Made by a program: the position numbers and the translations under genes. Under the pieces are notes generated by a model. The model saw only the letters and a list, made by a program, of their open reading frames with translations, did no database searches and was not told the DNA's origin. 64,000 nt of DNA, taken from NCBI GenBank assembly GCA_973895155.1, contig OZ316897.1, forward strand, positions 7,058,470 through 7,122,469. The letters run 5' to 3'. Positions 3,289 through 64,000 of the stretch are shown here, in pieces (the stretch's first letter is position 1; the number at the start of each line of letters is the position of its first letter). The stretch comes from Marsupella aquatica (lineage: Eukaryota > Plantae > Marchantiophyta).

Positions 3289-3292
3289 CTTG

Positions 3293-3304
3293 TGGTATCA
3301 GAGC
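3293..3304 (+). promoter_or_regulatory. Primer binding site (tRNA-iMet)
   Basis: TGGTATCAGAGC followed by gag. Confidence 0.9.
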
Positions 3305-3434
3305 AATTGCTAGCATAGACACCGGGCCGGGGTTGTGCTAAGTCGGAATCCAAAATCTTAGCAGATTTTTGCGGGGACTTAGTGCTTCAACATGCCCGGC
3401 GGGTCGATTGCGGGCAGATTCGGTCGCTGGGAAC

Positions 3435-7788: not shown

Positions 7789-7789
7789 G

Positions 7790-16061: not shown

Positions 16062-17060
16062 TACAGCTACAGCTCTTTTCTTGTCCGAAGTTCCACCTTA
16101 GAGTTACCGAATTGATAAGTTTGGAGTGGCAATAGTAGTAAGACGATAGTAGACAGCGACTCTTGTCTGCTATGCGCCCGCTCGTGTTTGTTTGGTCGCA
16201 GGACGAGGAAGAGCGTGGTAGCTGTTCTGTGTTTTGGAAGGCGTCGTTGTGAAGGAAAGGGTTTGCTTTACAGAACCGGGAGCTCAGTGTTTTTTACAAT
16301 TGCCGGAGGATGGTGGTTTTGAGTAGGGTGGGGGAGGGAGTGACCAAAATTCTGCCACTCGAGTCCAGGAATTCAGGTGTTGGTTCTAGTTCGTGCGGCA
16401 ATTTTTGTTTGCCCGAGCTGCAGCTGTCTTTTAAAAAGCGAAGGAGATAAACAGAGCGCGCATGGTAAAGAGGCAAATTTTCAACGGGGCGGAGCCGAGA
16501 TGTTCTTTAATGAAAGCGAGTCGATCGTCATGAGAATGGTGAGAATTTGTAGGATGGCGTCGGGCAAGGAGATGGAGACAAGGGAATGAACAGCAGCTGG
16601 TCCAGTGTCGAGGATTGGGGAAGGGGACGACTGGGCGCTGCGGTTGTGATATCGACTGTGACATGTACTATAGCGCGCCTTAATTATCGGGATGGAGCTG
16701 GCTAGGCAGTGAGAGTGGATGAGGCAGGTTGCGTTTTTTCACTAGACAAGGTGTATGAACCTAAGAAACTTTGCCTCGGTTGTTGAGGTGGAGCAATTTC
16801 GAGCTCACATTGTGCTCTACTCTAGCTAGAAGGGTAAGGCTTCCTCGAATTTAGGGCGTATCAGCAGGGTATGTGACTCTTTGCTCACGTTGGCAAAGCC
16901 GGCTTCTTGATTAGCGAAAAATCGCATGAAAGCACTAGGATTGCGGGTAGTCGATAGCCTGCGAAACTGACACAGGTCTTCTCACCGGGTGAATCGCGTG
17001 ACAACTCTATCGATGCACTCAAGGCTTTGAAGTTCTGCTTTCTGTACGCGACAGCGCCAC

Positions 17061-33552: not shown

Positions 33553-36500
33553 TGTTGAGCATAGACGACACTCGTAACAATAAGCACATGACACATCCAA
33601 CGCGCAAGTAATCGACACAAGAGATACGTGGTTCACCTCCTTGAGGCTACGTCCACGGGAACACACAAGAGAGCTTTACTGAACTCTAAGCCCGTCGGCT
33701 ATACCAAGTCTCCACAGTGTAAGCTCTCCTCATCTCTCAAGTGGCCCCATAACAATGAGCCTAAGTTCCACTTATCCAAGCAAACACCGCTTGGCATATA
33801 GTGTGCATCCTAGTTAACCTAACCACGTCTCCGACTACGGTTAGTCTAACTATGATTATATGTCGTAACCCTAGACCTTGAGTAAATACCTAACAATCTC
33901 CCCCTTGACTCTGGTCTAGGGGAGGGCAATATTGCTAACCTATATGATTCCTCAGCGGGAAGTTCTGGACGGAAACCAACATGGTTTCCCCTCTCTAACT
34001 AGAGCAAACCAGAACTAAGCCGTAGCCTATTACTAGGAGTGAAGAAGAGCATATATCAGTAATTACAGCGAATGTTAAGAAAAACCCTTACTTGTGACGC
34101 AATTGCAAAACCTGCAACACATCACAATGTCTAGAGAAACTTTCCAAAGGAATCACTTTGGTAAATGCGTCAACTGGGTTGAGTTTACCGTCTATCTTGA
34201 CTAGCTCAAACAAATTATCAGACACAACCTGCCTGATAAAATGGTACCTGACGTCTATGTGCTTCACTCTACTGTCCATCACCTGGTTCACAGCAAGGTG
34301 GAGCGCACTCTGACTATCATAGTGGAGCTTCACATTCCCCTATGGCAATCCCATTTCAGTGATAAGTCTATCCAACCAAATTGCTTCCTTCACTGCTTCC
34401 ACTGCTGCAACATACTCTGCTTCTGTAGTAGACTGAGCAATACACTTCTGCAAAGTAGACCTCCAACTTATGCATCCACTGCCAAGTGTGAACACGTATC
34501 CTATTGTTGATCTCCTTCGGTCTAGATCTTGTCCATAGTCAGAATCTACATGGCCAATCAATGATCTTGCATTATTTGCATTTGCATCAAATAAAAGACC
34601 ATGATCCATGGTACCGTTCAAGTACCTGATAATCCACTTCACTGCTTCCCAGTGTACCTTCCCTGGATTCGATATGTACCTGCTTACCTTGCCCATAGCC
34701 ATGGCAAGATTAGGTCTAGTGCAAGTCATCAAATACACGAGACTTCCCACTACCTTATCATAAGGAACCTTTGACATCAGCCCCTTCTCTGTCGCATTTG
34801 TGGGACAAAAAGCTGTTGACAATTTGAAGTGTGCAGCCAAAGGGGTACTTACTGGCTTACTATCCCCCATGTTGAACCTGGGAATTACCTTCCTTGCATA
34901 ACTGCTCTGTGTCAACCATAGCTTACCAGCCTCCAAGTCCCTAGTGATCTCCATACCCAAAATCCTCTTAGCTGGCCATAAGTCCTTCATCTTAAACTTT
35001 GCATTTAGCAGTGCCTTGAGCTTAACAATCTCAGACCTATCCTTGGTCGCAATAAGCATGTCATCCACATAAAGTACTAAAACAATGAACCCAAAGACAA
35101 TATTTTCACCGGTTTCAAATATACACAAGGGTCAAACACACACCTGTGAAAACCTTGTGACCGAATCCAATTGTCAAACCGCTTGTTCCACTGTCTTGGT
35201 GACTGCTTCAACCCATACAAGGATTTCAACAATCTGCAAACCAGTTCCTCTTGTCATCTCTTCACAAAACCTAGCGGCTGTCTCATGAAGATCACCTCTT
35301 CCAAGGTGCCATAGAGGAAAGTTGTGACAACATCCATCACTAGTACATTTTACCTCCTTTTTCTGATTCTCTCCACATCGGATGCCTTTGTAAAATAAAA
35401 TTTGAAAAACCATACATCCGATACTACTAGCATCGCAACATGCCATTTTAATAGTATCAGATATTGACAATCGGACTTCTATCAGAAAGTCCGATGGTGG
35501 GAGAATGGGAAAGTCCGATGCTAGGAGAATGGGAATGTTCGATGGTGAGAGAATGGGAAAGTCCGATGCTAGGAGAATGGGAAAGTCCAAAGCAATCGAA
35601 ATGGGATATGCATTTCAGCGGACGAGACATGCTCAGGTCACCCATCTCTTCCGATCCTTTAATTGGGTTCTACGTTCATTTGGAACTATGAGCTAGGTGC
35701 CCATTTCCCTTGACATGTGAACTCTTCAAATTTTCTCAACTAATTGGTCACCCATCCCAATTGCTATTCCTCCAACATGAGCTTAACTTTGTGGTTCTTA
35801 TTCCTTACATTGTACATGCAAGCTTAGCACTTTTGTTGTTTGACTTAGAGTGTTTGGGGATTTTATACACTTGTGAATTTACTAAGACCCATAATTTGGA
35901 CCCATTCTTGATCCATTTTTCTCTATCATGAGATTAGATCTTTGCATCAAGTGACCTATTCTAGTTACCCTGTTACATTCCCCTAGGAGAAACCAATAGA
36001 AATTTGGCAGGGGTCATTCGTCGATAGTAAAGCCTTCCTTCATTAGATTTGATATGGGATAATATTATGGCTTATTAGTTATTGATGATATTTTGGTCTA
36101 AAGCCTTAGCATCAATGGCTCTTGATTGTCTCATCTTTTATCAACTATGTTGTTGTTGGACTTGCAACAAAGACTACATGGGAGAAGCAATCTCCTTCTA
36201 GATGATATATTTTGGACTTGGCTGCATGTTGAGCACATATTTCCTTAAGGGAACAATATGTTGGGTCTTGGAAGGAGGCAAAAACAACACTCAAGTCCAT
36301 TTGCCTCAAGTATAAAGTTATTCATGCATGCAAGAATGATTGCATCTTTTGGGAAGAGTATGTCGGTGCAACCACATACCCCATCTAACACATCAAAACT
36401 TTTCATTTTAACACAATCAAAATTTGTCTTTTTGCCACAACCAGACTTTCCCATGCTCCCAGCATCGAACTTTCCCATTCTTCTAGGATCGGACTTTCTC

Positions 36501-39500
36501 ATTCTTCTAGCATCGGACTTTTCCATACTCCCAGCATCGGACTTTCCCATGTTAGCACAATCGGATATAATATCCGTTCTTATTAACTACAGAACTTTTC
36601 CGATCAATATTGTAATGCACATCATTTTCGTTACAAAAAACATCGGACATATCAATCAAAGTTTTTGTTGAGGGATCCGACGTGTTTTCTAACGGATATG
36701 ATCCGTTTTTTAACGCATCGGAAAGGTTCCGTTGTCAATTATATCGGAAATGAAGATATCCGAAGCCGAGAGTATGGCATATTGCCATTTTATGATAATC
36801 GGAATTTCCGATGCTAAAAGAATCGGACGCTGATTGTTCGCAAAAATTGAGCATCGAAAATCAGCTTAATATGTACTAGTGCATCTGATCTAGCAGTAGA
36901 CCAAACATTACAACAAGCACACACAATAGCCGTATTGTTGAGTACTTAGCAACTGGTGAGAAGAGCTCATTGTAATCCACACCTTTCTCTTGTGTGAATC
37001 CCTTGGCTACCAACCTAGCCTTGTAGACCTTCAATCCACTTCCTACGGAATTATCCTTCAGCTTGTAAATCCACTTGTTGTCCACCACTTGCTGACCCTT
37101 AGGCAGCTTAACAAGCTCCCAAGTTTTGTTGTCCTTTAGTGATTGCATCTCCGTTTGCATTGCTACAGTCCACTCTTGCTTCTCCTTTGAAGCACTTGCC
37201 TCATGAAATGAAGAAGGTTCCCCTTCTTCCAAAACCAACGCATCACCCTCATCATCAGCTGCAAAATCATCCTCTTGCAATTGAGATAAATCAACCCACT
37301 GTCCATACCTAGGAGGAGCGCGTACAGTGCAACCAGATGTTCTTCTAGTCAATGACTCTGGTTGAATTGCATCTACTAGTACAATTTGAATCTCAGCAGC
37401 ATCCACTTGCTGCTCATCAGCATCAACAAACTCCTCTTGTTCCTCTGGCACAGGAACCAGCTCCATGCTTGGAGCACCTCCTTCTCGTCGATCATGTACC
37501 TCATGATCAATCTCTCCCTCAACAAGATCCGGGATAGGAGATTTTCCTTTGTCAGTACGGGAGACCTGAGTATTCTTCCCCTCCTCCAATAATCTGGATT
37601 CATTGAAGGAAACATCCCTACTGACAACGAGCTTACAAGCAATAGGATCCCATAGCCTGTAGGCCTTCACACCACTCTGATACCCAAGAAAAATATATTT
37701 CTTGGACGTAGGATCCAACTTGGTCCTATTCTGCTTTGGTGTGAGAGCATATGCATCACTTCCAAAAACTACCAAGCCATGATAGTCTGCTTGCCGCTTA
37801 TAACGTATTTCAAACGGCGTTTTGAAATTGATTGCACTAGAAGGAGAAAGATTTACCAAATAAGCTGCAGTATTGACAGCTTCTGCCCAAAATTCATGTG
37901 GTAAACCTGATTGGCTCAACATACTCCATGATCGCTCCAACAGTGTTCGATTGAGCCTCTCAGCGACACCATTCTGTTGCGGAGTATAAACTGTGGTGAG
38001 ATGGCGAGTTATCCCCTGTTTAGCACAGTACTCTTCAAATTCTATTGAAGTGTACTCCCCACCGTTGTCTGACCTCAGACTCTTCACCCTTGTATCCAAA
38101 CACTTAACCGTGTTTCCTGTCTAATTCTCCACTTGGGCCTTCCACTTCGTAAAAATGGACAAGACATCAGACTTATGCGTCATGAAATAAATCCATACAA
38201 ATCTTGAGTAATCGTCAATAAATGATACATAGTACAATTTTCCAGAGTGTGAGGGAGTCGGGGATGGACCCCACACGTCACTATGTATGTACTCAAGAAC
38301 CGCTTTGGAACGATGAGTTCCAACACCGAAAGCACGACGATGTTGCTTTCCAAAAATGCAATGCTCACAGAAATCCAATTTAAAAGACTGCAAATCAGAA
38401 ATGAGCCCATTCTTCCGCAAGATAGCCAATCCCTTCTCACTCATGTGGCCTAGCCGTGAATGCCACAGTTGAGTCATTTTCTCGTGAGACTTGGTTACAT
38501 TGGCCTCTCCACATATTGTATTGCCCTGCAGCACATACAAATTCTTCTGTCTGCTCCCTTCAAAATCATTGTCTCTCCCAACATGACTTGAAGTTCACCA
38601 TCAATTACTGACCATTTGTATCCAACACGCCGAGTGAAATCAAATTCTTACGCATGCCAGGTACAAACCTGACTCCGGACACTGTGCGCACAATGCCATC
38701 AAACATTTGAATCTTTACAGACCCAATACCCTCAACTCGACAGGAGTGATCATTTCCCATCAAAACTGAACCGTTTGACACAGAATAAGAATTGAAATAC
38801 TCGCGAATGTAACAAATGTGAAAAGAGCAAGCACAATCAAAAATTCACACATCATTTTCTCTCTTAGATGATGTGCACAGGGCATACTCATGACTTCATA
38901 AAACATACTCATCATTGAGTAAATCAACTTCTTCATCAGCACTAGCCCACATTGGCTGATGAAGATTCAGCTGCCTTATCCTTACAATCCCTCTTAACGT
39001 GACCAACCTTGTGACACTTCCAGCAGACTACTGGCTTTCTCTCCTGGGACTTCCCCCTTGAAGCAAATCTTGTCCTAGATTTACTTCTTCCCATGCCCTA
39101 CGTGCGTTGCTCTTGACGCTTTTGTGACCTCCCACGATTCACATTCAAGGCAGCACCAGACGATGATGATGGCTGAGAGGGCATGGTCAATTTCTGCTGC
39201 AAGTCATCAGTCAACAGAGCACTTACAACTTCATTGTAAGTGAAAGTCTTCCTGTCACGATGAAGCAGCACTCGTGACAATGACTGATACGATGAGGGTA
39301 AAGAGCTAAGCAAGTGAAGAGCCTGCCGCTCATCACTCAAATCCTCCCCCAGATTTTGCAAATCAACGACCAGGTCGTTGAAACCATCGATATGGTCCTT
39401 CATCTTTGCACTTCCCTCCTTCATCTTGAAGCTCATAAGTTTTAAAGATGTGTAGAGCCGATTTGATAGCTCATTTTGATGGTACTTTTGCTCCAACGCG

Positions 39501-41608
39501 ACAAACAATGATGCACAATCGACATGGTCTGCCAACTGCTTGATGACATTAGGCTGAAGATAGAGCATCACAGTGCTCACAGCCTGCTCCTGCATGTTCT
39601 GCCAGTTATCATTGTTGACATCATTTGGCTGGTCCTTCAGCAATTTCCCAAGCCCGGTTGCACGGAGTACCCCCTTCACTTGTTGCTCCCACAACAAGTA
39701 GTCTGTGCGGCCATCGTATTTTGTAACCTTAAACTTGGGACCTCCAAGCTTGATTGTCCCCATCCTTTTTCTTGTCACTCATCGCAATACCGGTGACCAC
39801 AATTCTGCTAGATCTTCCGCTTCCTCCCCTGTTCTCTCCGGTGACTCAACAGAACCCTCCTCCAAGTCACTCATGTGAGAAATCAAGAAAAAATGACGTT
39901 TTTCTCAACTTCTCAAAAAACTCAAAAGTTATCACCGCCACGTAGCCCACGAGCCTAGCTTTCCAACGCTGAAAACCAAAATCAAAACCGAACTCCAACG
40001 TAAAAGTTATTCACTTTTCGGTCGGGGTGGGTAAAACTTGGAATTCTCCCTCGTTTTGACCACCTCGGGGAATAACCAAAATGTGAACTAGTACCCGACG
40101 TCGGAAATGCAATTCAATTTGTGCACCGCGTTGCCAACTCCAATGGCTAGCAACTTGCCGAAGACGAACGAAAAAAGTTACCTTTCGGCGGACGAAATCT
40201 TCCACAGACGGACAAAACATATCTCTCTGGTTTTTTGGAATATTCTATGACCCTTGTACAGGCCCTGTGGGAATTTTGGAAGAACAATTGAGGGGCTGAC
40301 ACGTGTCCTCAAACCCCCAAAACCCCCTATCACCCTTCGTCATCGAAATTTGGTCGCGCGCGCAAAAAATACACATGGCAGAATGTACCCCTTGACACCA
40401 AACGCAAGATATCTCACTCGTAGTTTGACGAAATCAAGATCTGATTTCAGATTTGGAAACTAGATTCCAAAGCGGTGAAGATCGATATAAGAAGCACCCA
40501 AAATGAGGAAAGAACAAGGGAGAAAAAAATTGGTAAAAATGACAGATTTTTCTCAATTGCCATAGCCAATTTCGAATCAGTTTTTCAAAGAGAAAAAATG
40601 GTACCTTGTCAACAATGAATGTTAATGAATTGCACTTGGTGCCGTCACCAAGTCCAACAAGGTAATTGATTTCGCTTAGCCTTCCTCTTCGCATCAAAGA
40701 GCCAATCCCGGACTCAAAACAATCGTCTTGCCTCAATCTCTCTGTTGAGTCAAAACACTTGACGCTTCTCCCTCCGAGTCGATTGCCATGACAGGAAACC
40801 CCACTCAGGCAAAAGAGGACTCCATAGCCGGTCAGAAAATCAAAATGCTTCTTTTGCTCGTCCCGTCGCACACGGTACTCACTTGGTAACAAATCAGCTA
40901 CCAAAACAAATAGCTCGTCCCGATCTACAAGCAGAGCTATAGCATGCGATGCCTCCTTCGCCGTAGAGCTCACACCGTCGAGAAAATAAACTCTGGTCCC
41001 TCCTCTAAAAAACCGTCGAACACAAATATTGCCGACTTTCTTCACAAAATCCAGAATGACAAAAACTTAGATCTCTCACGAGCTCTGTTCAGCGATTTCT
41101 TCACACCATTAGAAAGCTCTTGCCTCGATCTATCCATTGAGCCCATAAACTCCAAGTTCCATGCGATGGAACTCCGGGAAATCCACCGACACTCAACGCT
41201 GGAAAAACCGTCACGAAATCCCATCATGAACACACGTCACCTCCCAGGCATGCTCTGATACCAATTGTTGAGCATAGACGACACTCGTAACGATAAGCAC
41301 ATGACACATCCAACGCGCAAGTAGTCGACACAAGAGATACGTGGTTCACCTCCTTGAGGCTACGTCCATGGGAACACACAAGAGAGCTTTACTGAACTCT
41401 AAGCCCGTCGGCTATACCAAGTCTCCACAGTGTAAGCTCTCCTCATCTCTCAAGTGGCCCCATAACAATGAGCCTAAGTTCCACTTATCCAAGCAAACAC
41501 CGCTTGGCATATAGTGTGCATCCTAGTTAACCTAACCACGTCTCCGACTACGGTTAGTCTAACTATGGTTATATGTCGTAACCCTAGACCTTGAGTAAAT
41601 ACCTAACA
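33553..41608 (-). mobile_element. Full-length Ty1/Copia LTR retrotransposon (inactivated)
   Basis: 343-bp LTRs at 33553-33895 and 41266-41608 with 4 differences by eye; TSD ATAGG/ATGGG; PBS 41252-41263; PPT from 33896; gag (39098-39778), CWKCHKVGHVKRDC, integrase (HSDVWGP, RSDNGGEY, PQQNGVAER), RT (YKARLVAKG, QMDV, LYVDDML), RNaseH (VKHIDVRYHFIR). Confidence 0.97.
35338..36881. mobile_element. Non-autonomous CACTA element inserted in the Copia RT
   Basis: TIRs CACTAGTACAT/ATGTACTAGTG; 3-bp TSD CAT; inverted arrays of about 21-bp GAATGGGAAAGTCCGATGCT repeats at about 35485-35590 and 36443-36552; removing it restores LDQMDV. Confidence 0.95.
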
Positions 41609-41767
41609 ATGGGTCCTCCTCTCGTCCACATTGGGCCCTGACATAGGGCTAGGATTATTTGCGCTTGTAGATATTGTGATCCCTGATGGTTGTGCACCCG
41701 AGGGCTTGTCTCAACAATATTGGACCTTTGGGCAATATGGCATGTCGGTCAAGCTTGACCCTAGGTA

Positions 41768-48300: not shown

Positions 48301-49662
48301 TCTTATGCTACCAACTATGTATGTCACGACAAAGGCAAAGTTACTTCAACCCAAGCACTGTCGTGGGACTTTGCCTTATTGGAGGGTAAGTAAATTAAAA
48401 CTGGGCCTCATTTAAGTTAGTGACTTGTAGTATTCTCATTATGAGTTTCTCACTAGCAAAACATGATTTTCCACTCATTTTGCAGATCCTCGATCCAAAT
48501 CCAATGGTTGTTGGACCCCATGCATATTGAAGTGAATGTTGCCAAGAATATAGCGAAGCACATTTATGGGAGGAATGATACTCCTGGGGTCCAAGAGGAT
48601 GCAAAGAAAGTTGGAGTGGTAAAGAGTTGTTGGATAACTCAAGTTGGGGAGAAGCCCGCTGCTCCTTAGGTTATGCCAAAGGAGATTTTGAACGGGATGA
48701 TATGTCTTACGTTCAAAATCTCCTTTGGCATAACGGCTAGCCATTACAGAGCAGGTTCTAAGGTTGCACTACAAGGGATGAGCACATAGTTACCCCCAAC
48801 AGGCTTGAAGTCTCACAATTATCACAAGGTGATTCAACATGTTGTATAAGTTGTCTTGCGTTGTTGTGATGATTCTAGAGAGCTAAGCCTACTTTGACTC
48901 ACAGTATATGAGATGTGCTCCATTTTCAGGTTACCATTGAAAATTAAATTCATGTACTAGTTGGAAAATGTGGGAGTTAATCTATTCAAAGCATGTGTTT
49001 ATGTACTAATAATTTGAGGCCCATTATGGGTGCCTTGTGAACAAGTGGGTATGCGCAAAGGAGATAAAGGAGAGTGAGATTATGGAGATGAGGGAATGGT
49101 CAACACATGTTATGTGCAATATGGAGAAGATGTTTTTTACCATGTATTTTTGACATGCAGTTGCATTTGCTATGTCATCTAGTGGACGAGGTAGCCATTG
49201 CTGGTCCAGTACACGCGCATTGGATGTATTGGGTAGAACGCTACATGACAATGCTCAAGTCTTGGGTGAATCAACCCGCTCGACCAGAGGGAAGTATGGC
49301 AACATGGCATATTTTGTCGGAGTGCCTCTTCTACTCTGGTGGGGTGATAGGGAGTTTGGACACAAGGCTCCCACAACTTGGGAAGAGGCACAAGATGATG
49401 AGATTGGTGGATTGCGAGTGATGGGCGCATCAAAGAAGCAATCATTACATGGAGACATTTTCTGATGACAGATCCACAATTATGTGTTGGAGAATCACAC
49501 TGAGATGTCAGATTGGAGAGAGCTATATAGGTAGGGAGGTCATCCTTCATGTTGAGTCCTACTTAGATGGAAATGTAGATGGATAATTGTAGGCAACAAT
49601 GTCTAATGTATATGTGACCCTATACTTGGCAGGGCATGGGTGGAGCAGCAACGGATAGGGGC
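45385..49662 (+). mobile_element. Decayed, intron-containing CACTA (En/Spm) TnpD-type transposase
   Basis: LPRCVREAKK..IHMCPSGCILY..CP; DGVNPY; LDPMHIEVNV; HLLCHLVDEV..GPVHAHWMYWVERYM..ARPEGSMA. Confidence 0.9.
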
Positions 49663-50277
49663 TGTCATGCGCATAAACATCGCTACACAACATACATCGC
49701 TTGTCACACATATCTAAGCATAGTCACAATCAACATCACAAACATAAGAGAATGGAGTACAAGTGGAGCTCCTATCCACGCATGTCCAAAACCCACAATC
49801 GGCAACAACAATCTTCAAGAGCAATCAAACAACGATTGATGCCAATCAAACACACAATCCTGCCCGACGCGATCACATGCTTATGTCAAGCCAAACGCAC
49901 CTTGCGCCTCAAAGAATCCACGTTACATACACACAACCTAGACAACCACACCATAGCCGCTAGAGCTTTGCTTGAAAGGCTCAACATCAAAAGATGAGAC
50001 CTTTGAGCCAACACAAAGAGATATATAATTATCCCTCACAAACATACACTAACCCTAAAACACTTAGATAACACACATATGAAAGCATCAAACTTGCATA
50101 GTCTGATATCCTATACTACCACTCATATTGGTGTGACAGCTGTCGTGTGCATAAACATCGCTACACAACATACATCGCTTGTCACACATATCTAAGCATA
50201 GTCACAATCAACATCACAACATAAGAGAATGGAGTACAAGTGGAACTCCTATCCACACATGTCCAAAACCCACAATC
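49663..50277 (-). repeat. 3' LTR region of the DNMT-Gypsy: full LTR (49663-50138) plus partial tandem copy (50141-50277) next to the PPT
   Basis: TGTC...GTGACA termini; about 137 bp duplicated; CCCCCCT tract at about 50279. Confidence 0.7.
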
Positions 50278-50449
50278 ACCCCCCTAGTTGGGAGTGAGGT
50301 CCCCTAACTCTAGCTAGCCATAAGTTTTACAAGGTTGAAATACACCTTTTTAAGTGTGGAGATAAGGAGGCCGAGTGCAAGTGAGCCCCATCGATCACCT
50401 TCCTGCAATCTATACCTTCCATGAGAACACCAATGGTAACTAGTCGGCT

Positions 50450-50600
50450 TCACCAATATTGAGGACACAACCATGATCCACTAGGAATCACCTCTAATGG
50501 TGGTGTCAAACATGACATATGCCATCCTCTAGAACACTTATCACAAATCAACATAGTGGTTGCTCCTTGAGCAGATCCACACAACATACACTTCAAGCCG
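50450..50600 (-). CDS. PHD finger at the integrase C-terminus
   Basis: CMLC..LICDKC..WHMSCL.PPL..IPSGSWLCP; the last Cys appears mutated to Tyr. Confidence 0.9.
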
Positions 50601-51168
50601 GCACGAACATAAGCAAAAATTGGATCTACAATACCATCAATGTTTGAAAGATGACATGGTGCACAATTGTGCACATGATCCTTCCAAACCATACCATCAC
50701 GTCCTTCCAACATTAGGACACCAGAAGACAACACTTCACGCACACGTAAGATTGTTCAACCCGCGGTCACATCAAGTGTTGTTGGTGCGATTTGCTGCAA
50801 ATAAACAAAATCACCAGGACGAAACCGTCAAATCCTCGCACGACAACCTCCTCCATGAATAGTGACATACCTCAAAGTATCACGATGTTGGGCAATGGCA
50901 AGGTTGTCAAAGGCCATGAGTATGACTCTCTCAAAAACTTGTTCCCTTTCTGAACACACCTTGACCCAAACATTGGGATCATCCAAATCCACAACAATTG
51001 CCACATCATGACAAATAGCCATTGGCAAATCTGGCTCTCTACCATAGAGCAAGAAATAAGGTGAGAAGGATGCAAGTGATGCTTGTCGACTGAGCCCATA
51101 GCTAGCCAAGGTAGCTAGAGATCCCAATCTCCCAAATGACCAACCTGCAAGCCATACTTACGCAATCT

Positions 51169-51398
51169 CTTTTTTTTCTTTCCATTTATTCCGCTTGAAC
51201 CCCATGGAGAGGGCAACCAGCAGGCCAAAAAAGGGCATAAAGAGAAGCCCTAAGGGGCAAGCAACAAAAGAAGATCTGTGATAATGCACGTCAGGGGTAG
51301 TGCAGATCCAAGTAGAGGGGAATTGCTTCCCTCATCCAAGTGCCTAAAATACTCCCAAATCTAGACAGTGCAAAAAGTCCTTAGCACATAACCACTCG
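51169..51398 (-). mobile_element. Short 5'-truncated LINE (or SINE-like) insertion in the integrase
   Basis: 14-bp TSD TACTTACGCAATCT (51155-51168 and 51399-51412); AATAAA and poly-A on minus; 3' end resembles the LINE 3' UTR near 11895-11930. Confidence 0.85.
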
Positions 51399-53769
51399 TA
51401 CTTACGCAATCTTCTCTTCACAGTTTGTACAACTCTCTCTGCCAATCCATCTGCCTCAGGATGATCACGAGAAGTAGAATGATGATCAATAAGAGCTTGC
51501 TCACACAAACCCTCAAACTCTCCACGGAATTCCATGCCCTGATCAGTCAACACCTCAGTTGGTGCTCCAAATGACTGAGTACTCAATCCAAAAATGTGAT
51601 AGCCACTCCTCCACTAGCTTTATATGACAATGCCACTAGTTCAATCCACTTGGAGAAGTGCTCCACCATAACCAAAACATATTGATTATGACGTTGGGTA
51701 AGAGGTAATGGACCAGCAAAGTCCAAACTCCATCAATATCCCAAACCCATTATCGATAACGGATGCAATTGGGGAGTGGGAGCATTGAACGATGCTCACA
51801 CTCAATCACATACCACACACTTAGTGATCAATTGTTGGACATCAGTACGCATACCATGCCACCAATACTGTGTCTGCAACAAGTTGTATGTGCGTTTCAC
51901 ACCAAAGTGACCCAACTCCTCGTGCGCATGTCGCACCAAACGTACTTGTTGTGCGGGTTTTGGTACAACCAACACCTTGCCATCACGTAGTATCCTCAAA
52001 AGATGGTTTCCTTCCCATCAAAACCTCTTGGCTCGTTGTAGAACCCTATCTCGCTCCTTAGCATCATAATTGCCAAAAATGGAGCCACCACACAAATATT
52101 CCAACACTCTCTTATCGTCATGAATATCTTGCTGCCCAAAAACTACCTCATCAACATCCATATATGAAGACTCAACGTCTACCCCATCCAATGAAGTAGA
52201 GTCCACAGATCCACTATATGTTGGAACCCAACAAAGAAAGGCAGATGCATGCCATCTTGACACACTCTCCTTATCTGACTCATCATGCCATCAAGCTCCA
52301 GTCTCATCCTCTTGACTGGTACATGGATTATGGCTCAACCCATCCGCATCCAAGTTCACTTTACCAGGCCTATGCACAACCTGGAAATCATACTCTTGTA
52401 ACAACAATGCCCATTGTGCAAGCTTCCATGTAAGCTTGTTAGACTCCATTAACCACTTGAGGGGCTGGTGATCAGTGATCAAGGTGAATGGATTACCAAA
52501 CAAATAGCAACAGAAATGTGATATAGCCCACACAACTGCCAAACACTCTCCCTCATATGAGCTATACTTAACCTTTGCTGAATTGTTTGATCTACTGGCA
52601 TATACCACAACAAACTCATTCCCCTCATCATCCTTTTGAGTCAACATTGCTCCAAGTCCTACTCCACTCCAATCAGCGTGTAGCTGAAATGATCATCCCA
52701 AAACGGGTCTTCTCAAAATAGGTGTTGAGGCCAATCTTTCCTTCAACTCTTGGAAAGCATGCTCTTGGTCGTCACCCCAAATCCACTCCTGGTCCAACTT
52801 AGTGAGTATAATTAAAGGCTTAGCAAGTTCGCTAAATCCTTTAACATATCATCTATAATAGCTTGCCAATTATCCCAAGAATGCACGAACTCTACTCACA
52901 TCAGTAGGACAAGGAATCTGTGTAATGGTCTCCACCTTAGTCTCTTGCACACCCAATCCTCCTAGGTAGATAGTGTGGCATGGTATATATATCAATCAGA
53001 TTTTTTCTGATAATTAATAGGTCGATAATCACCACACATTTGCCTATCTATGTAATTGCCACGCACATCCTTCTTGGCTGACATCACTATGGCAGATGCA
53101 TACTCCCCGTATGAGATCTCCACCAAACCAGCCTCCAACAAATCCTGAGTTCTACTCTGGATCAAAGCTCTCTCCATGTCACTATATCGATACGGTCATC
53201 AAAAGATTGGCGCATCACTAGCCAATTCAATCTGAATACCAAGACCCTTCAATGTCCCCAAATCCTTCATACTAAATGCAAAACAATTCCAATAACTCTT
53301 CAAGAATTGATGCATGCAACATCTCTCCCTCCCGGTCAACTTAGGACCAATCTGTGGTTCCCAACTCTCCATCAAAGCTGCGACATCTTCCTTTGGAGTT
53401 GAAGAGGCCACAAGCCATGGGCAGTGACTCTCCATCAAAGTAGTGACATCTTCCTTTGGAGTTGAAGAGGCCACAAGCCGTGGGCTATGACTCTCCATCA
53501 AAATTGTGACGTCTTCCTTTGGAGATGAAGAGGCCACAAGCCGTGGGTTGTGGATGGAAGAGTCAATCGCTTGTTGCTATTTCTCAAATAGTTTGAGCAA
53601 CCTCCTTGTGCTCAACAATATGTTTTGCCTTGGCCAATCTTGCCATAGGTCCATCAATCGTTTGCTTGCCCCTAGCTATGGCCGCTATTGTCTCGGTAGG
53701 CCGCAAGCTCACCAATGGACAAGTTGTAACATTAGAAGTGCGCATTTGCAATTGTTTAGCTAATCCCAA

Positions 53770-54690
53770 GCTGATAATCCAAGTCAAGCAATTCAAATCC
53801 ATGGTTTGACCATGGACTTGACAACGTGAATGCTCCGACACCGAGGCCACTCTCTCTCATTAGCGGTAGGCTCTACGAGTCGTTGTAGAGATGTATCCCA
53901 AACAAGCCCAAGGTCACCTACTTGAAATGCGTATGAAGCAGAATGGCTCATAAAAATGGGTAATGCACAACGCGGATGCCCAACTACATTGATTTCACCA
54001 TTGCCAATGGGGGTCGATCAGATTGGGTAACACTTTGTGCACGACGCCCTGGATCCAAAATACCATCCACCACTAAGGTTGTTGAGCAAGGTATGCCATC
54101 AAATTCTTGCTTCAAGACCTCACATGGTAACAAATTAGTCCATCGCAATCGTGGATGATGTGCACAAGAACCCACACATGCAACATCCAATAACATAGCA
54201 GGTCCAATACAAGATCAAACCTGATGAACACTAGGAACAATTTGATGACGATCATCACCCAATAATGGCACATTCTCCAAAATGTATGTAGGAGAATGTG
54301 TCTGATGCGTCTAGAGATGGCGCAACACACGTAACATCTCTCAAAATAATTCAGATCTTGGATCATGAAATCCATGTCCAATTCTAGATTGAGATTGACC
54401 CTGACATGGCCAACCCGCAATCACCAAATCAATGGGGCCAACACGATCCAAATGATCCGCCCCCAATAATGAAATATCAATAGGCAATGCATGCTGATAA
54501 CCACGAACGACATCCATTGGAAACAAGTGTGGATAATGTTCCACCAACATCGCTACATGAGGTAGTGAGATCCTCCGTGTTATCTCATCATTTTCCATGT
54601 ACAAGTAACAATGCACAGGAATTCTTGCTTGAAGAATAGCAACCAATCCAGTGCTAATCCCACCAAATAGATCCAAGAAACAAATACCCT
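53770..54690 (-). pseudogene. C5-cytosine DNA methyltransferase domain inside Gypsy pol
   Basis: Motif I LDLFGG (54659-54676); II YMEND; IV GWPCQ (54401-54415); VI ILENV (54269-54277); VIII AHHPRLRWTNL, all in one frame. IX-like EPTANER and X-like GQTMDLN follow. Confidence 0.9.
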
Positions 54691-56626
54691 CCTCTGGATA
54701 CTGCCACAAAATAGGAGTGGTATCCAATGGTGAAAGGGTCATCGGTCCATCTGGAAAAGATTGTTTTGCTCCTGACTCAGGTGTGAAAGCATGACGCCAG
54801 ATATCATGTATCAATTGGGCCGCATTTTGTTGAAAGGCCTCTCCAATACCCCATACTGGTGCCACAATAGTATCAACAGGTAATACACCCATCCTGTGTT
54901 CCTCACGTGGCTCCTCCATTGCCAAAACATCTGCTGCATGTGCGTTACCTTCAATCAACTCATCAAATCCAATAATCAAACTACTAAAAACTGCCAAAGA
55001 CAACGGTGCAGATTTAGGACCTTCGGCAAGTCCACTAAATTGCATTGGGAATTGGCTCAATTGAGCATCTCCAAATTGCCAATTGGGTCAATACGGCATC
55101 GACTCATCCCAAAAATCAAGAACAAATCCCATAGGATAAAATACTGTACATCCCACTAACACATCATATGACTCAGCCTTAGTCAAAATAGCTTGAGCTT
55201 GGATCCGTGAGTTATCCTTTGGATGATCCTCTTGAATCCTAAGTTCAAGTGCTCGTCTGGTGATATGTTGTTTGGGTGTAGGTCCTCCCAATGAAGTCTA
55301 AATGGGAAAGGGACACTCCTCCAAATCATCTAGACGCAATCCCAATCCTTGTATTGCAGACTTACCCAACATCAAGGGCTGAGCACTAGTATCCAATAAC
55401 ACTCATTCTAGCTGGTATATTGCTCCAAAAGGCCCAACTAATTGGAAGATACCACTCCAATTATCTAATGATACCACACTAGGTTTAAACCTAGTTCTCT
55501 CAAAGGCAGGGCGTGCTGGTAGCTCCATCAACCTCAGCGTTGCTGCTTGCCATGTTTCACCACTAGCAATAGGTGGAATCAACTCCACAACTTCAGAATT
55601 ATGCACTGTCTTTGCACGAGAAGCAACAATTGGAGTGTCTTCACATAATGTGGCCGCCAATCTGAACACTTCAGCTGGACTTACTCCCAATGCCAATATA
55701 TCTGTTGTTGAAAATAACAGGGTGCGCACAATGTTAGTGGCCGCCCCCAACAAGGTACATGCTAGCCCTGTTGCAACATCATCCAATTCTACCAACTTAT
55801 CAACACTTGGATTTTTCTTAACCGGGTTCATAGAGGTAGTGTGAACTGCCTCTAACAACGTAAATGATTGGGGAAGCTTTGTTTGACGACGAGCCTGCCC
55901 CCTTTGAGGATCCAACTCTACCATTGCTCCTTGGGGCTCAAGGGCTTTGGTTGCTCCTTGAGTCAAAGCTGCCGATGCATCAACATGGGCAGTGTCACAC
56001 ATGAATCCCATGGTGGCCAAGTCTCCGTCAGCTCCATAAGATGTAGAAGCTCCATCACCAGAAGTAGGTCTAACGTGAGAACTGGCCATGGTAGCCAGTT
56101 GTTGCTCCAATTGAGCAATCTTTGCATCCTTTGGATCTATGGCAGTGGCAAGAGCATCACCTCCTTGTCTCCCTACATGTGGCATACCTTGGCCATGACC
56201 ACCACCTCTACCTCCTCTTCTTTGATCATACGTATGCAAACCTCCCCGTTGTAGTTCAGGATGGAGTATAAAACACCTATCCGGTGTGACCAGAAACTCC
56301 ACAATGATCACATAATTGTTGATTGGGCATAGATGCCCCTTCGGACCCTCTATTATCCGGGGAATATCTTTGTGCATGACCCCCACCACAAGTCCAACAT
56401 CCTGACTGTTGTCCAGCATAGGAAGGCACAAGTCTCTGACTAGTAGATTCCCGTGTTGTAGGCTTCTCCCTCTGGCTCTTCCTTGCAGTAGGTTGCAATG
56501 TGGATGTAGATGCAACCTTTGGTGGGCCTTCCTTGACAAATCCGGAAGTCACCACCTTCTCATTCACCATATTGAACTCAATGCGCTCAGCAAGTGCAAA
56601 AACAACAGCCAATGTGGGATCTGAAT

Positions 56627-56900
56627 TGTCACACCATTCTAGATGTTGTTGTAGTATATAGTGCTAGTTGAGTATGTACATTTTGTATGTGTGCTATTGG
56701 AGCCGGTAGGGTTCCATTAGGTTTGTGTGAGAGGGTAGTTCTCTCTTGTGAGGCATTGAAAGGTTATCTTTCAATGTTGAGCCTTGGAGAGGGGAGCTTG
56801 TGTGGTGGCTATGGTGGCTGAGAGCTCTTTCTATGTAGCGTGGATTCCTTGAGTACAAGGTGCGTTGGCTCGATATACATGTGTGATTGGATCCCCTGGG
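56627..56900 (+). repeat. LTR related to 49663-50138 in the opposite orientation, truncating gag
   Basis: Starts TGTCACACCA; its reverse complement shares CCAACGCACCTTG, GAATCCACG and GGCTCAACAT blocks. Confidence 0.65.
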
Positions 56901-57084: not shown

Positions 57085-57320
57085 TACACAGTAGTTCCAC
57101 CATTTATGCATAGTAGTTTTACAAACTAGATGCATAGTAATTCCACCAACTACGCATAGTAGTTGCACCAATTACGCATAGTAGTTTCACCAACTACGCA
57201 TAGCAGTTGCACCAATTACGCATAGTAGTTTCACCAACTACGCATAGTAGTTCCACCAATTACGCGTAATAATTCCATCAACTACACACAGTAGTTCCAC
57301 CAACTATGAATAGTACTAGC
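57085..57320. repeat. Tandem array of about 22 bp, about 10 copies
   Basis: GCATAGTAGTT(C/G/T)CACCAA(C/T)TAC repeated. Confidence 0.9.
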
Positions 57321-58932
57321 ACACTTATAGGTGCTTGATGCTTGCCACTTGGCTTCCATCCAAGGGTCAAGGCATCGATCCATGCCCTCTTGGAAAACAC
57401 AAAGGGGCACTATAAATAAAGTGAAAAGGAGCACACTCTCCTCATTCGCATTGTTTGATCTATCGTGTTGGACTTGCAACACTGTAAGAAACTCTTCCCC
57501 TCTTGTGCACATGTCTTGTTTATTATTTACCTCCATGCTTGGGTACTAACTTGATTGTTAGCCTTAGAACTATTTTATATTTTATGTTTATTAGTCTTGA
57601 GATCAATTTAGTGTGCTTGTAATGAATAATATGATAAATGGAGTACCTAGAGTTTATCCCCCACCTGCTATGCCATTTGTCAATCCTTTTTTAATTAGAA
57701 TTCATTGTCTTAGCAAGCATACCATGAGAATGCATCTTCTTTATCATTTTGGATTTGAGTTAATGGAAACAGTTATGAATAGCGATGCACCATTTATATA
57801 CCCGATTGTTATTTATGGAAATGAATGGAATGTAACTATTTTTATTTTATATTAGATGGATTTTAATAGACAATCCATAAATGTACCGGAGTTAGATTTG
57901 AATAGGCTTCCTAATAATGTGTCTGATTTTCTTTCATCTATTGACATTAGAGTGGTATGCCGTAAGAAGGTTGATTGTAGAGATGTTTTAGTTAGAAAGT
58001 ATGGAGATGAAAGATATAATGTTATGCTTAGGATGCCAGAGCCTGTGATTATATCATCTATGGTAAATCTTAAGATCATAGTCTTTGTTTTCTATAATTG
58101 ACTTATCTAAGGGGTATTTACATAAGACAGGAAACAGGAAAACAGGAAACCCAAAACAGGAACCGATGACAGGAAACAGGAAAACCGAATACACCAAACT
58201 TAAAAGAAAAATACCGGAAACTTGTCTGTTGTTAAGCAAGAACTTGACACCCAAAACGGGGCTTTTAGAAGATTGTAGTCAAGTCCAAAAAAATGATGTA
58301 GAATAGCAACAGGCGCTCGAATACTAAGCCGAGGGGAACGGTACATTTGAACCTGGGTTATACTGAAAAGCACATTAATTCACCAAGCGCTGCCATTGTA
58401 ATTGTACAGAATGGAGCTCTAAACAAGAAACTCTGGCGCGTCCGTTGGACCGGTGCAGATACTAGCGCCAGGCGCTAGTTATATCGCTCAGTCAGACAGA
58501 GGCCGACGTGATAAATACGATGAAACCACAGGGACAATCGGACCGGTATTTAGGGTTATACATCCAAAAGAACCAACTCCAACCAATTCGCATAATTGAA
58601 CGCCACCCCAAAATCCACAAAGTCTTGCGATACAATTTTTTTAAGTAAGATGGTAGCGCCAAGAGCTTACAAAAGATCAAAATGATCCGCATAACCACAC
58701 CGTAAACGGAAGGTATGAAAGTTTCAAAAAGCTACGCGCATCCGACGCCTCTCGCTTAAAACGGCCGAACAATAAACTAGTGCTAGGCACTTCACCGAAC
58801 TCCACACAATCGAGTTCCAAAATGGCTACATCTAACAACAAGATTTCTAAATTCTGGTCAAGTCCCGATGAAGTCTTCATCACATTGGGAAAAACATGAG
58901 CGCAATGGGCACCATAGTCTTATCGACCAATG

Positions 58933-60396: not shown

Positions 60397-63300
60397 TCAA
60401 TCTGAGAATTTTGATTCACTTGACTCGGACCTGTCGGTGGATTCTGCCTCCATGTCTAAAAATTCGTTCTCGGCCATATCATCAACATATCGACTATGAA
60501 TAAATTTTCTATCAGACCCTCTCCTTAATCTCAAACCTTTATGCTCCCAATGGAGGGTCCGCGCACTATCAGCTCGTCTAGCAATATTCTCAGCATAGGA
60601 AGGTAGTACAAATGGTTTCTCGGGAGTTTTAATATATCGCCTAGCTACTTTCCTTCTGAGTTTGAAACGCCGGCGAAGATTCCAGTCTGACCTGAGGACG
60701 AGAAGTTTAGGGTTTTATGTCAACACCAAGAATATTTTAAAAACAAAAAAAAATGAGAAATCTAAGAGAGAATAAGGTAATGTACTAAAAAACCAAAAAA
60801 CAGGGTTTTCTTAAGAGCTTACTCGGAAGCTTCTTACTCAGAAGAGTCTCCGCTGTCACTCCCTCCATTAGATCCTGGATCTTCTCCAGTAAGAGACACT
60901 TTGGGAATGTTAGGATCCTCCTCTTCTTCCCCCTCTTCTGTCTCATCCTCATCATCAGAATCAAAATTTAAGACAGACTTCAGTTTGTCTCTCTTTCGTT
61001 TTGAAATAGAAGACTTTGGAGGGGATTTGGGCTCAGACTCTTTTGGAGTAAGAAGATCCAGAAATACCTTAGAAGCAGTTTCCACAAACTCCTTCCTATT
61101 CTCGAGTCCAATTACAAAACGACCACAATTATCACCTGCAACAAATGTACTCCCCGAACCTACAGCCCAATCCAGAACAATATCTCCTGGACACGTAATT
61201 AGTTCCAACACAGCCTGCATGAATCCTGGATGTAGTCTGGCATTCCCGGAAAATTCAAGCTCCGGAGTTGTATCAACCTTCGCGAAGGGAAGTCCAATCA
61301 GATTTGTAATGGAAGGATCCTCTGTTTTTGAAAGGGGTTTGAACTTAGGATCTTTTGGGACTTTCACCTTGGATGATATCCGCGAAAATACATCCAAACG
61401 TAAAGTGAATACCTGAAAAGGGAACAAAATAGAGGAAGGACCCTTAGATTACAATAGCGCCAGGCGCTAGCAAATAATCCACAAAATCAAGTTGAATAAT
61501 TTACCTGAAATAAGGTCGAATAAAAAGGAAAGTAATAGATAATATGAATAGCGCCGGGCGCTAGCAAAAGGATCAATAAAATTACCTGTAAATCAGACTT
61601 CGCTTTGTACATTGGGAACCCCATGACGACACTATGTGTACATAGACATTGGAATTTCTTGGACTCTTGACAAGCGGAGATGACCTGAGAAATTTGATCA
61701 TACTCCCCCGTATGGAGTATCGCAATAATTCCGTCATCCGACAAAAAAGGATCCATTGCCCAGAAAAAGGATCGGGCTAGGGTACAGTCGGGGACGTTCC
61801 ATTTAGGGACCTTTCTGTCAAGCAAAGTTGGTTTTAGTCCAGTTGGCAAGTAAATAAAACCAGCGTCAACACCAAAAGGTCTTTGCTTCCCACCCCTCAC
61901 CACTCCTTTCAGCCGGCATCCAAATTTGATCAGGTCTTTCCCCCACTTTTCGGCAGCATTTACCCATTCCGGCTTCTCCTCCTTATTAAACATACTGTCC
62001 ACAAGTTCACTGACACTGGTCTCAACGAAACAATGACGAGACGACTTGGCTTTAAAATCCCCAATATCACGTTGGAGCCCAGTGGCAGCTTGAGAATCCC
62101 GTTCTGATTGTCCAACATCTCGAGTCCTTCTGCTTTTCTTTTTTGTACTCGTCGCATTGACTGGGACAATCGATTTCCCAGAATTAACTGATGTAAGTGG
62201 ATTTGGCAAAGCGCCAGTATTTGCTTCTGAAGCTTCTGGAGTAGCCTTCGTATCATCTGTGCCATCTGCATCTGACTTCTTTTGACCTATGGACATATTG
62301 CAAAGAATGTGGGATTAGGGCCTTCAAGCAAACACTGATGAAGATTGAATCACAAGAATGGTAGCGCCGGGCGCTAGCAAACATTTGAAAAAAGATGGAA
62401 AACTTACGTTTCTTTCCGGATCTCGTGGAGGCACTTGGCAATGCAGTGTCTATTTTAACTTTCCCTCGTGGCTTGCGGCTCCTATCTACATGGACAACTA
62501 CTGTCTCACAGATTGTCTGTAACTCCGTAGAAGACTTATCGACGTCGCTAAGGAGACCTTGCTTCATCTCAGAAACAATGTTGGGAAGGATCTGCGACTT
62601 TGCAAGTTTCAGAAACCAATCCTTCTCCACTTCATCAAAGGGTGAATCCCACTTGTCTGTGTCAAGGTACCATGGGCAGTGAATTCTTTCCCAATCAGAC
62701 ATTTCCCTTGGCGGTAGTTTACCCTCGGCAGGATACATCGAGTATAAGTCACAAACAAGATCTCCCTCCTTTACAGTAATCCACTTGTGAAATGCGGCTG
62801 GATACGACCAAAGAGCATCTGGGGAATGAATTTCCATCCAAATGTAGAAACGATACAAATACCTCTTGGCCCTCTTCTGATTTTTCTCGGTATATACCTC
62901 TTTATCAGGGTATTTTGATGGCCACATGGTGTTGAAGAACTTTGCCTTCACAAGATCCCCATACCTTCGGAATTCACTTGAAATTACTTCAATCAGATTT
63001 TCTACCGAGTCACACCCTGACTGGGCAAGCCTATCAACCGGTAGCGTTTCAATCGCTGCGGACATTGCCGAGTGTAGCATCCCAATTGCAATTCCCTTGA
63101 CGGTATTCCATGTTTGCCATGTGTGGCACCACTGCTTCACTGGATCATCATTCACACTCGAAGGGTGGAAGAATTGTTTTCTCAACTCTGGAGTACAGTG
63201 AGCAACGAGCAATGTACACCTCAATTTCGGATCAAGCGCCGAAACTGCAGTGAAGAGTCTGGCACGGTCCATAGTGCAAACAACCGAATCTGGTTTTTTC

Positions 63301-64000
63301 TCTCGCTTGTTTTTCTCTGTCAAAACATACATCTCTGCACAGGTACCTAGAAAATCTTCAAACTCAGGACTAAGAAGAGGAGTGATTTTGGACATTTTTG
63401 TGGACCAATCTTTAGTAGATTCTTTCAACATGAGCGATTGCCGCTTTGTGATGTCATCAGCCGACCAAGGATTGCCTTGACTTGCTGCCAGTGCCATGTC
63501 CATCTTGAACTGGTTAGTGTAAGCTTTGATTTTGTTTTCGCATAAAATATAGACTAGAGCTTCCAGAGGCATTTTTCTTGTGTACCAAGAATGTTTTTGA
63601 GTCTTCTGTTTGATATACTCAAACTTTGCATAATTGGCGCTGTCAATGATAGACTTGTAGTGCTCTAGATCGTGAGAAAGAATCCTCCGGATTCTGTCTG
63701 CGTCAAGTATCCACGACGGTTCAACAATGGCCTGCCCTAACCTGCAATAGGTCAGGTTTTCAATTATTAGCGCCGGGCGCTAGCTTAACTTAAACACTCA
63801 ATTAGCCTATAAACATTGTATTATTTTATAAACACTCCATAAACATTGTATTTATGTAATCAACAAGTATTGCGGAAATCATTAATTACAAGCTAGGGCA
63901 AAAAACGTACTGGTTCACAGTGTGCATAGCCGCCTCAATCTGAATTTGTGAAGCTTTGTCGCCCTTGAAAATGGTGTAGAGAACTCTGGGATGATACTTG
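60397..64000 (-). CDS. Spliced gene (5'-partial) for a large protein with a C-terminal N6A/N4C amino-methyltransferase-like domain, probably transposon-borne
   Basis: Exons >64000-63911, 63741-62408, 62286-61586, 61412-60838, 60691-60397 (alternatively a stop at 60834). GT-AG, phase-compatible, no stops. LELITCPGDIVLDWAVGSGSTFVAGDNCGRFVIGLE; upstream VDAGFIYLPTG..W..FLSDDGIIAIL. Confidence 0.75.

Follow-up and report, generated by a model that had tools for sequence, protein, structure and literature searches.

Why should a retrotransposon carry the very kind of enzyme with which its host silences transposons? The question is raised by a 64,000-nt stretch of the genome of the liverwort Marsupella aquatica (contig OZ316897.1, positions 7,058,470 to 7,122,469), here called the window and numbered from its first letter. 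Read from the right, its minus strand carries a partial gag, an aspartic protease (PR), a C5 cytosine DNA methyltransferase (DNMT) domain, a TAG stop codon, a reverse transcriptase (RT), an RNase H (RH), an integrase (IN) and a PHD finger (Table 1). The order Gag-PR-RT-RH-IN is that of Ty3/Gypsy elements, as is the Ty3-like RT, which in the relative P0104 is closest to Ty3-G (E 2e-94). The reading that we prefer, with a probability of roughly 60%, is a dead copy of a high-copy Ty3/Gypsy family in which Gag-PR-DNMT is packaged, the cDNA is methylated, Pol is made by readthrough and integration proceeds from circular cDNA. A Gypsy element with a Dnmt3 domain is already known from Klebsormidium; the spread among bryophytes, the conserved stop and the junction between the B and A repeats appear to be new. 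A published algal oddity is thus met again in Marchantia, a genetic model with many long Gag-PR-DNMT open reading frames (ORFs), and there the question of why a transposon carries its host's silencing enzyme becomes testable.

The first-pass annotation of this locus, made from the letters alone, had recognised ordered C5 methyltransferase motifs in a single frame, and all of these are present on the minus strand: LDLFGG (from 54685), END, GWPCQ, ENV and AHHPRLRWTNL. Of the domain, motifs I-VIII are all that this frame holds; the remainder, motif IX-X region included, is spread over two further frames and runs to ~53770, with breaks near 53990 and 53850. Of the span 53770..55060 given in that annotation, the part up to 54685 is enzyme and 54686-55060 is linker towards the protease. 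Two of the internal stops, TGA at 54341-54343 and TAG at 54311-54313, had been explained as deaminated TGG and CAG codons. Homologs indeed carry Trp at the first position and Gln at the second, and other copies of the element have a sense codon at TAG 54311 in most of the depth from four sequencing runs, which fits deamination. The element as a whole has a CpG observed/expected ratio (o/e) of 0.40 and a TpG ratio of 1.55, a CpG loss that fits methylation-driven decay. The view that this copy is dead is borne out by a third stop at 54215, by the two frame breaks, and by an RT that lacks ~135 residues including the YxDD region.

With stops read as X, the domain matches PF00145 (E 1.2e-9; 38.6 bits, where the cut-off is 22), so that the proposed profile check came out positive. 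Its closest relatives by sequence in the Protein Data Bank (PDB) are DNMT3C, 3A and 3B, while DRM2 and bacterial enzymes rank lower, in line with the earlier description as DNMT3-like. The Marchantia domain aligns with it at 54-63% over three pieces (tblastn). The window copy has His in place of the first motif VIII Arg. For the natural homolog P0004, the modelled fold has a mean pLDDT of 67, with 83-95 in the core, and among the matches listed in a fold search with this model only DNMT3A and 3B occur (best E 5e-11). Weighing against this assignment, an insertion region of the domain (model residues 250-335 of P0004) is poorly folded, with pLDDT below 50. The window domain is a DNMT3-like C5 methyltransferase as judged by sequence, and its homolog has a predicted DNMT3 fold.

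Rather than a single accident, the domain proves to be a regular part of a widespread family. The earlier annotation had stated that canonical land-plant Gypsy lineages lack it, but such elements are present in many copies in land plants, and annotated Marchantia Gag-PR-DNMT ORFs are among them. Homologs of the window DNMT comprise 52 of near its length and 58 longer ones, with Calypogeia, Marchantia polymorpha, M. paleacea, two Sphagnum species, Mesostigma, Chromochloris and Haematococcus among the names. The window element itself belongs to a high-copy family; in the four sequencing runs, 2,772 to 11,225 contigs fall on the element stretch (which is not a copy number), and the depth over the DNMT is about that over RT, RH and IN. 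The order PR-DNMT-RT is found in relatives from Marchantia, Calypogeia, Sphagnum, Closterium, Mesostigma and Klebsormidium. In a metagenome set of 80 loci, Sphagnum-like by sequence and chosen via their DNMT (members without DNMT thus being uncountable), PR lies upstream in 47 of the 57 loci with 900 nt of upstream DNA and RT downstream of the DNMT in 53 of 61; RT-RH-IN-PHD follow in order in 26, and RT or RH directly upstream occurs in none. A stop-free frame of 500 codons is absent from all 80.

A profile search gave 324 DNMT clusters at E<=1e-30. Among the best 150 of these, RT or RH precedes the DNMT in 63, an integrase follows it in 18, a protease precedes it in 15 (13 ending without RT and 2 continuing), RT follows it in 2, and it stands alone in 52. 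Names found among 20 clusters looked up are Klebsormidium nitens, six Closterium and one Scenedesmus. All named members with PR-DNMT or DNMT-RT are streptophytes, and all three named members with RH-DNMT are chlorophytes, in whose elements the domain lies between RNase H and integrase. A single branch separates the two orders both in a DNMT tree (37 rows, support 96) and in an RT-RH tree (28 rows, support 100), which are quick, unrooted trees that leave out host DNMT3, DRM and DNMT1. One early gain of the domain followed by one move would be the simplest reading, and it is very probable that the window family belongs to the same lineage as the KnitGypsy-Dnmt3 elements of Klebsormidium and is old in green plants; the lack of an outgroup and of host DNMT3 in both trees tells against leaning on them too far. 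Word-pattern scans of low sensitivity, run on viral contigs for the RNase H and on prokaryote genomes for the DNMT, brought up no close relative of either. In three loci of a distant clade (L066, L076 and L077), the DNMT and a partial RT are followed by an inverted PR-DNMT piece, a recurring rearrangement.

The median omega between the window copy and the main clade is 0.21 for the DNMT (68 unsaturated of 70 pairs), beside 0.19 for PR, 0.17 for RH and 0.09 for RT; within the decayed main clade, that of the DNMT is 0.62. The DNMT domain is under purifying selection, the outcome of the dN/dS test suggested at the outset. That the window copy alone had captured a piece of a host DNMT3, or had received one by nested insertion, is a view for which nothing speaks beyond the broken state of that copy, and it is refuted by the homologs: the domain sits in the same place in dozens of loci and in six named streptophyte genera, with omega at ~0.2, and we regard such an origin as next to impossible.

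Enzyme activity is the weakest step of the proposed mechanism. The catalytic Cys is kept in 141 of the 143 clusters that cover it and the motif VI Glu in 140 of 143, while the two motif VIII Args are kept in 135 of 140 and 138 of 139. The chances are about even that the DNMT acts as a de novo methyltransferase, with the cDNA or the insertion site of the element itself as its substrate. In motif IV, GWEC or GFEC stands in more than 70 of the best 150 clusters (P0179-P0316), including those of Mesostigma and Closterium; the Pro before the catalytic Cys has become Glu in much of the lineage. This replacement of PC would suit a domain kept as a non-catalytic or weakly catalytic DNA-binding module, serving as cDNA tether, integrase guide or silencing decoy. 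So would the finding, itself a point against activity, that the K. nitens domain gave no methylation in yeast, a result that its authors call inconclusive (PMC5890265). A mere binding role nevertheless seems rather unlikely, since green plants throughout retain the catalytic Cys, the Glu of motif VI, the Args of motif VIII and motif I, which binds SAM, bryophyte copies have the canonical GWPCQ, and the related SymbioDIRS-Dnmt3 domains of Symbiodinium are reported in the same paper to methylate CG de novo in yeast.

The DNMT had been described as flanked by protease and RT. The order is correct, but the domain does not run directly into RT, and the single PR-DNMT-RT-RH-IN-PHD frame that was expected of intact copies is not what bryophytes have: there, the DNMT closes the Gag-PR frame, and DNMT and RT share a frame that is split by a stop. 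Such a stop stands ~65 codons beyond the domain in 52 of 57 related loci (39 TAG, 13 TAA), and the next codon is CAA in 52 of 57. By comparison, any single codon within the DNMT is a stop in at most 7 of 28 copies. Where RT lies close behind the DNMT (43 loci), both are in one frame in 30. In the window, the matching place reads TAG CAA and belongs to the RT frame, which is open for 125 codons onward; the DNMT tail of this copy is in another frame, the break lying near 53590, where other host copies vary in length. Positions 53574-53579 show no variant in other host copies among 40 of the 55 variant rows. In Marchantia, several annotated Gag-PR-DNMT proteins of 1278-1281 amino acids with intact motifs end just beyond the domain, as does another clade of ORFs of ~1330 amino acids. 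The Marchantia ORFs are entered as hypothetical genes of the host, and a count of DNA methyltransferases in bryophytes could be confounded by them.

The signal for stop-codon readthrough in tobacco mosaic virus (TMV) is CAR-YYA after the stop (PMC2194720), and MuLV, SIRE1 and Tca2 likewise have an in-frame stop between structural and enzymatic frames, as described in that source. It is fairly likely that the stop of the present family is read through, with the consequence that the DNMT would be made at a Gag-like level, far above RT and integrase; the stop thereby predicts both the amount and the place of the enzyme, at particle level and with Gag. Several points count against this. The context matches the TMV signal only in part, the moss-like clade agreeing at 5 of 6 positions and the window at 4; the moss-like clade has an ATG two codons past the stop, which would allow re-initiation; DNMT and RT are not separated by a stop in the type-A relatives P0158, P0205 and P0196; and the peer-review file of PMC5890265 describes the K. 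nitens elements as one ORF. The 57 loci, moreover, form one closely related clade and count as about one event, and in the 8 distant loci decay has gone too far for the stop to be read.

The stop might instead truly terminate, with re-initiation or a spliced or subgenomic RNA as the source of RT and integrase, or it might be an inherited lesion of non-autonomous master copies. The ATG, present in most of the 57 loci, and the existence of single-ORF relatives would agree with this, and Tca2 shows that a stop of this type need not follow the TMV rule (PMC2194720). We think true termination improbable in view of the window copy, which at a protein divergence of at least 26% has TAG CAA with no ATG behind it and a frame open into RT, and of the purifying selection on RT, RH and IN beyond the stop.

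The repeats of the element are as unusual as its coding region. A canonical pair of long terminal repeats (LTRs) was sought in the element and none was found; there is instead a split arrangement of two repeats, A and B. In the full-length relatives L019, L060, L062 and L064 the layout is A-coding-PPT-B-A-B (PPT, polypurine tract), and the 3' end of the window copy reads PPT-B1-GC-A2-B2. B1 and B2 differ at 5 of 138 places, which means that the insertion is not ancient. The element termini are TGTC at the start of A and GACA at the end of B, and a 4-bp target duplication is seen in 5 of 6 distinct full-length insertions among the relatives, the window's own 5' end being missing. The same TGTC and GACA face each other over 2 bp at the internal B1/A2 junction, in 8 loci and in the window.

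With a PPT before B1 and a primer site after A1, ordinary reverse transcription would yield [B-A]-coding-[B-A]. Joining of the ends and cutting of one B/A junction would then give exactly the integrated form, and would explain the likeness of B1 and B2. Circles of LTR elements are usually taken as dead ends; the repeat layout here points to an integrase route through them. We somewhat favour the scheme in which linear [B-A]-coding-[B-A] cDNA has its ends joined and the integrase cuts the internal B/A junction to leave A-coding-B-A-B. The split repeats could otherwise have arisen by an RNA route like that of Ngaro or PAT elements, or by ordinary LTR rearrangement, with the integrase joining the normal ends of linear cDNA. 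That the A2/B2 joint is the same in most loci, as it would be under inheritance, is in keeping with such a linear route, as is the fact that a shorter form can arise after insertion. Yet linear cDNA would start with B, given the PPT before B1, whereas the insertions have A at their start and B at their end; the internal junction, too, brings the terminal TGTC and GACA face to face; the A2/B2 joint differs in L059 and L060; and B1 and B2 are near-identical within each element while differing between clades. We think the linear route improbable on these grounds.

The shorter form, A-coding-B, is seen in nine loci that end at a single B. Its origin by integration of a one-LTR circle was considered but set aside: L042 (short) and L059 (long) represent the same insertion, with 3' flanks 95% identical over ~800 nt. 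The short form therefore lends no independent support to circles, to the disadvantage of the circular scheme; one short copy or more must be a later product or an effect of assembly.

As for priming, Tf1-type self-priming follows an 11-nt rule. No TGG-type primer-binding site follows A1 in any of 18 loci. In 10 of the 18, 9-11 of the 11 bases after A1 pair with a site ~31 nt behind a TATA-like box in A (0-1 of 200 shuffles do so), and this 11-nt pairing is what self-priming of the Tf1 type would need. The match is absent in the other 8 loci, which counts against such priming. On evidence from the moss-like clade only, self-priming of this type is slightly favoured. In Tf1 and Tcn1 an 11-nt self-complementary primer site replaces the tRNA site, and plant Tcn1 elements are described as self-priming (PMC6317226).

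In the proposed cycle, the transcript would run from A1 to A2. Gag-PR-DNMT would be made in bulk, and RT-RNase H-integrase-PHD, through readthrough of the stop, would accompany only a few Gags. The protease would free the DNMT inside the particle, where the new cDNA would be methylated and then circularised, and the circle would be inserted by the integrase, its PHD finger reading chromatin. A broader picture, which we consider doubtful as a whole, is that of an old green-plant Gypsy lineage with a DDE integrase acting on end-joined circular cDNA, a palindromic attachment junction intact in every full insertion, a large excess of active Gag-fused DNMT3, and copies that are methylated before they insert; the lineage would predate the chlorophyte-streptophyte split and would have shifted the domain a single time, and the methylomes of Marchantia and mosses may owe something to it.

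The nearest published relative is KnitGypsy-Dnmt3 of K. nitens, a Gypsy element with a Dnmt3 domain (de Mendoza et al. 2018, PMC5890265). As far as the sections of that paper cited here go, it shares an intronless, unrearranged Dnmt3-like domain within a Gypsy polyprotein, purifying selection, and DIRS-like repeats (Fig. 4c legend), of which the window shows B-A-B and its relatives the full A-coding-B-A-B. In the K. nitens protein GAQ93235, PR is followed by DNMT; over 233 residues this protein shares 30% identity with the window domain (E 5e-27). In contrast to these sections, which treat the DNMT as an acquisition of the K. nitens lineage, it is found here in liverworts, mosses, Closterium and Mesostigma, and relocated in chlorophytes; bryophyte copies also differ by the conserved stop that splits DNMT from RT and RNase H. 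Those sections say nothing of termini, target duplication, junction or priming site. Later papers mention the kind in passing as 'streptophyte' (PMC12344493; bioRxiv 10.64898/2026.05.21.726589). No account of the land-plant family, of the stop or of the route through a circle junction was found in a literature search that left outside Repbase, subscription journals and several supplements (including that of Sarre et al. 2025), which may hold bryophyte copies.

SymbioDIRS-Dnmt3 is described in PMC5890265 with a Dnmt3-like domain and the same A-coding-B-A-B repeats, but has a tyrosine recombinase where the window family has a DDE integrase with PHD and 4-bp duplications. DIRS and Ngaro elements are defined by a tyrosine recombinase and the lack of target duplication; here there are an rve integrase and 4-bp duplications, and no recombinase family was detected among 33 long relatives scanned. 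From the chromoviruses (Chlamyvir, Tcn1) the family differs by the C-terminus of its integrase, with a PHD finger and no chromodomain in the window element or the relatives scanned. Phygy elements (REXdb) have a tRNA-Trp site and an NCGN target, whereas none of the 5 duplications here is NCGN and a tRNA-type site is absent, a separation that rests on the published description. The EpiLTRs or DAM-LTRs of a recent preprint (bioRxiv 10.64898/2026.05.21.726589) are likewise Ty3/Gypsy elements with DNA methyltransferases and a chromatin reader, but, in the text cited, their DNMT is sister to DNMT4, they carry DAM and a chromodomain, and they are set apart from streptophyte Gypsy-DNMT3. Compared with the stop-separated elements of PMC2194720 and with Tf1/Tcn1 as portrayed in PMC6317226, the stop here comes after both PR and DNMT, and there is neither a chromodomain nor a canonical LTR pair. 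With DNMT3A, 3B, 3C and plant DNMT3 (as outlined in Yaari et al. 2019, PMC6453930) the window domain shares motif order, motif VIII, the wording of motifs IX-X, and its best sequence and fold matches; identity to eukaryotic DNMT3s is ~20-23%, and the family's domain lacks PWWP and ADD, has two insertions and lies inside a retroelement.

Table 1. The Marsupella element and the repeat that interrupts it, listed from right to left in window positions
Feature	Position	Strand	Evidence
A-like repeat of a second related element, opposite orientation, starting TGTCAC at the exact gag break	56627..56890	+	66% identity over 272 nt to A2; gag match stops at 56627
Gag, C-terminal part only, zinc-knuckle-like motifs, broken off at 56627	55457..56626	-	tblastn to residues 216-357 of Marchantia gag; translation
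Aspartic protease (LLDTSAQ), with stops	55037..55456	-	48% to Marchantia protease region, E 3e-43; relatives match Asp_protease_2
Protease-DNMT linker, sharing the frame of motifs I-VIII	54686..55036	-	reading frame
DNMT3-like C5 cytosine methyltransferase domain; canonical order of motifs I-X; broken by 3 internal stops and 2 frame breaks	53770..54685	-	PF00145; PDB DNMT3C/A/B; tblastn; homolog fold
In-frame stop TAG + CAA between DNMT tail and RT; likely readthrough site	53577..53579	-	RT-frame position; related loci
Three in-frame 63-bp tandem copies in the stop-RT linker	53364..53552	-	repeat listing
Reverse transcriptase remnant, ~135 residues deleted between 52989 and 52977	52831..53192	-	tblastn
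RNase H	52324..52779	-	PF17917 E 4e-33
DDE integrase, H2C2 zinc domain and rve core, broken	51026..51969	-	PF17921 E 1e-17, PF00665 E 1e-3; tblastn
C-terminal PHD finger	50459..50590	-	PF00628 E 2.5e-11
Polypurine tract, directly before repeat B1	50278..50290	-	same place in related loci
Repeat B1, 137 bp, ends GACA	50141..50277	-	repeat comparison
Palindromic junction GACA-GC-TGTC (B1 end, 2-bp spacer, A2 start); likely integrase attachment site	50135..50144	-	same in 8 related loci
Repeat A2, 338 bp, starts TGTCAC; 5' twin A1 outside window	49801..50138	-	repeat comparison with related loci
Repeat B2, 138 bp, element 3' end, ends GACA; 4 substitutions + 1 indel against B1	49663..49800	-	alignment

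The window protease piece itself has no Pfam match. The A-like repeat at 56627 is likely to be a nested insertion that has displaced the element's 5' end beyond the window; this second element is followed by a 22-bp tandem array (57087-57329), and its other end also lies beyond the window. At its 3' end, the element adjoins a decayed piece of CACTA-type transposase (49092-49421, plus strand; DUF4218, E 7e-21). The window contains no tRNA gene.

A second methyltransferase-carrying mobile element may be present at 60834-62314. On the minus strand there, a probably spliced gene piece matches PF01555 above the cut-off (E 2.2e-8), through a motif from the C-terminus of N4/N6 DNA methyltransferases, and its sequence neighbours are bacterial. 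A 508-codon orphan frame (62253-63779) lies beside it. CpG loss in the region is slight (o/e 0.84), and TAGCGCCxGGCGCTA palindromes are scattered through it. Marchantia DN4MT1 is presented as a liverwort 4mC enzyme in bioRxiv 10.1101/2021.02.12.428880.

Elsewhere in the window, a host gene on the plus strand (17031-25097) includes an open stretch of 1103 codons, the sole match of which, with 7,997 candidates scored, is an occludin/ELL-domain protein of Calypogeia fissa (77% over 495 residues); this one gene points to a leafy liverwort as the likely host. A Copia element occupies 33553-41609, with repeats at 33553-33852 and 41266-41565 that are 99% identical, and long open pieces of pol on the minus strand.

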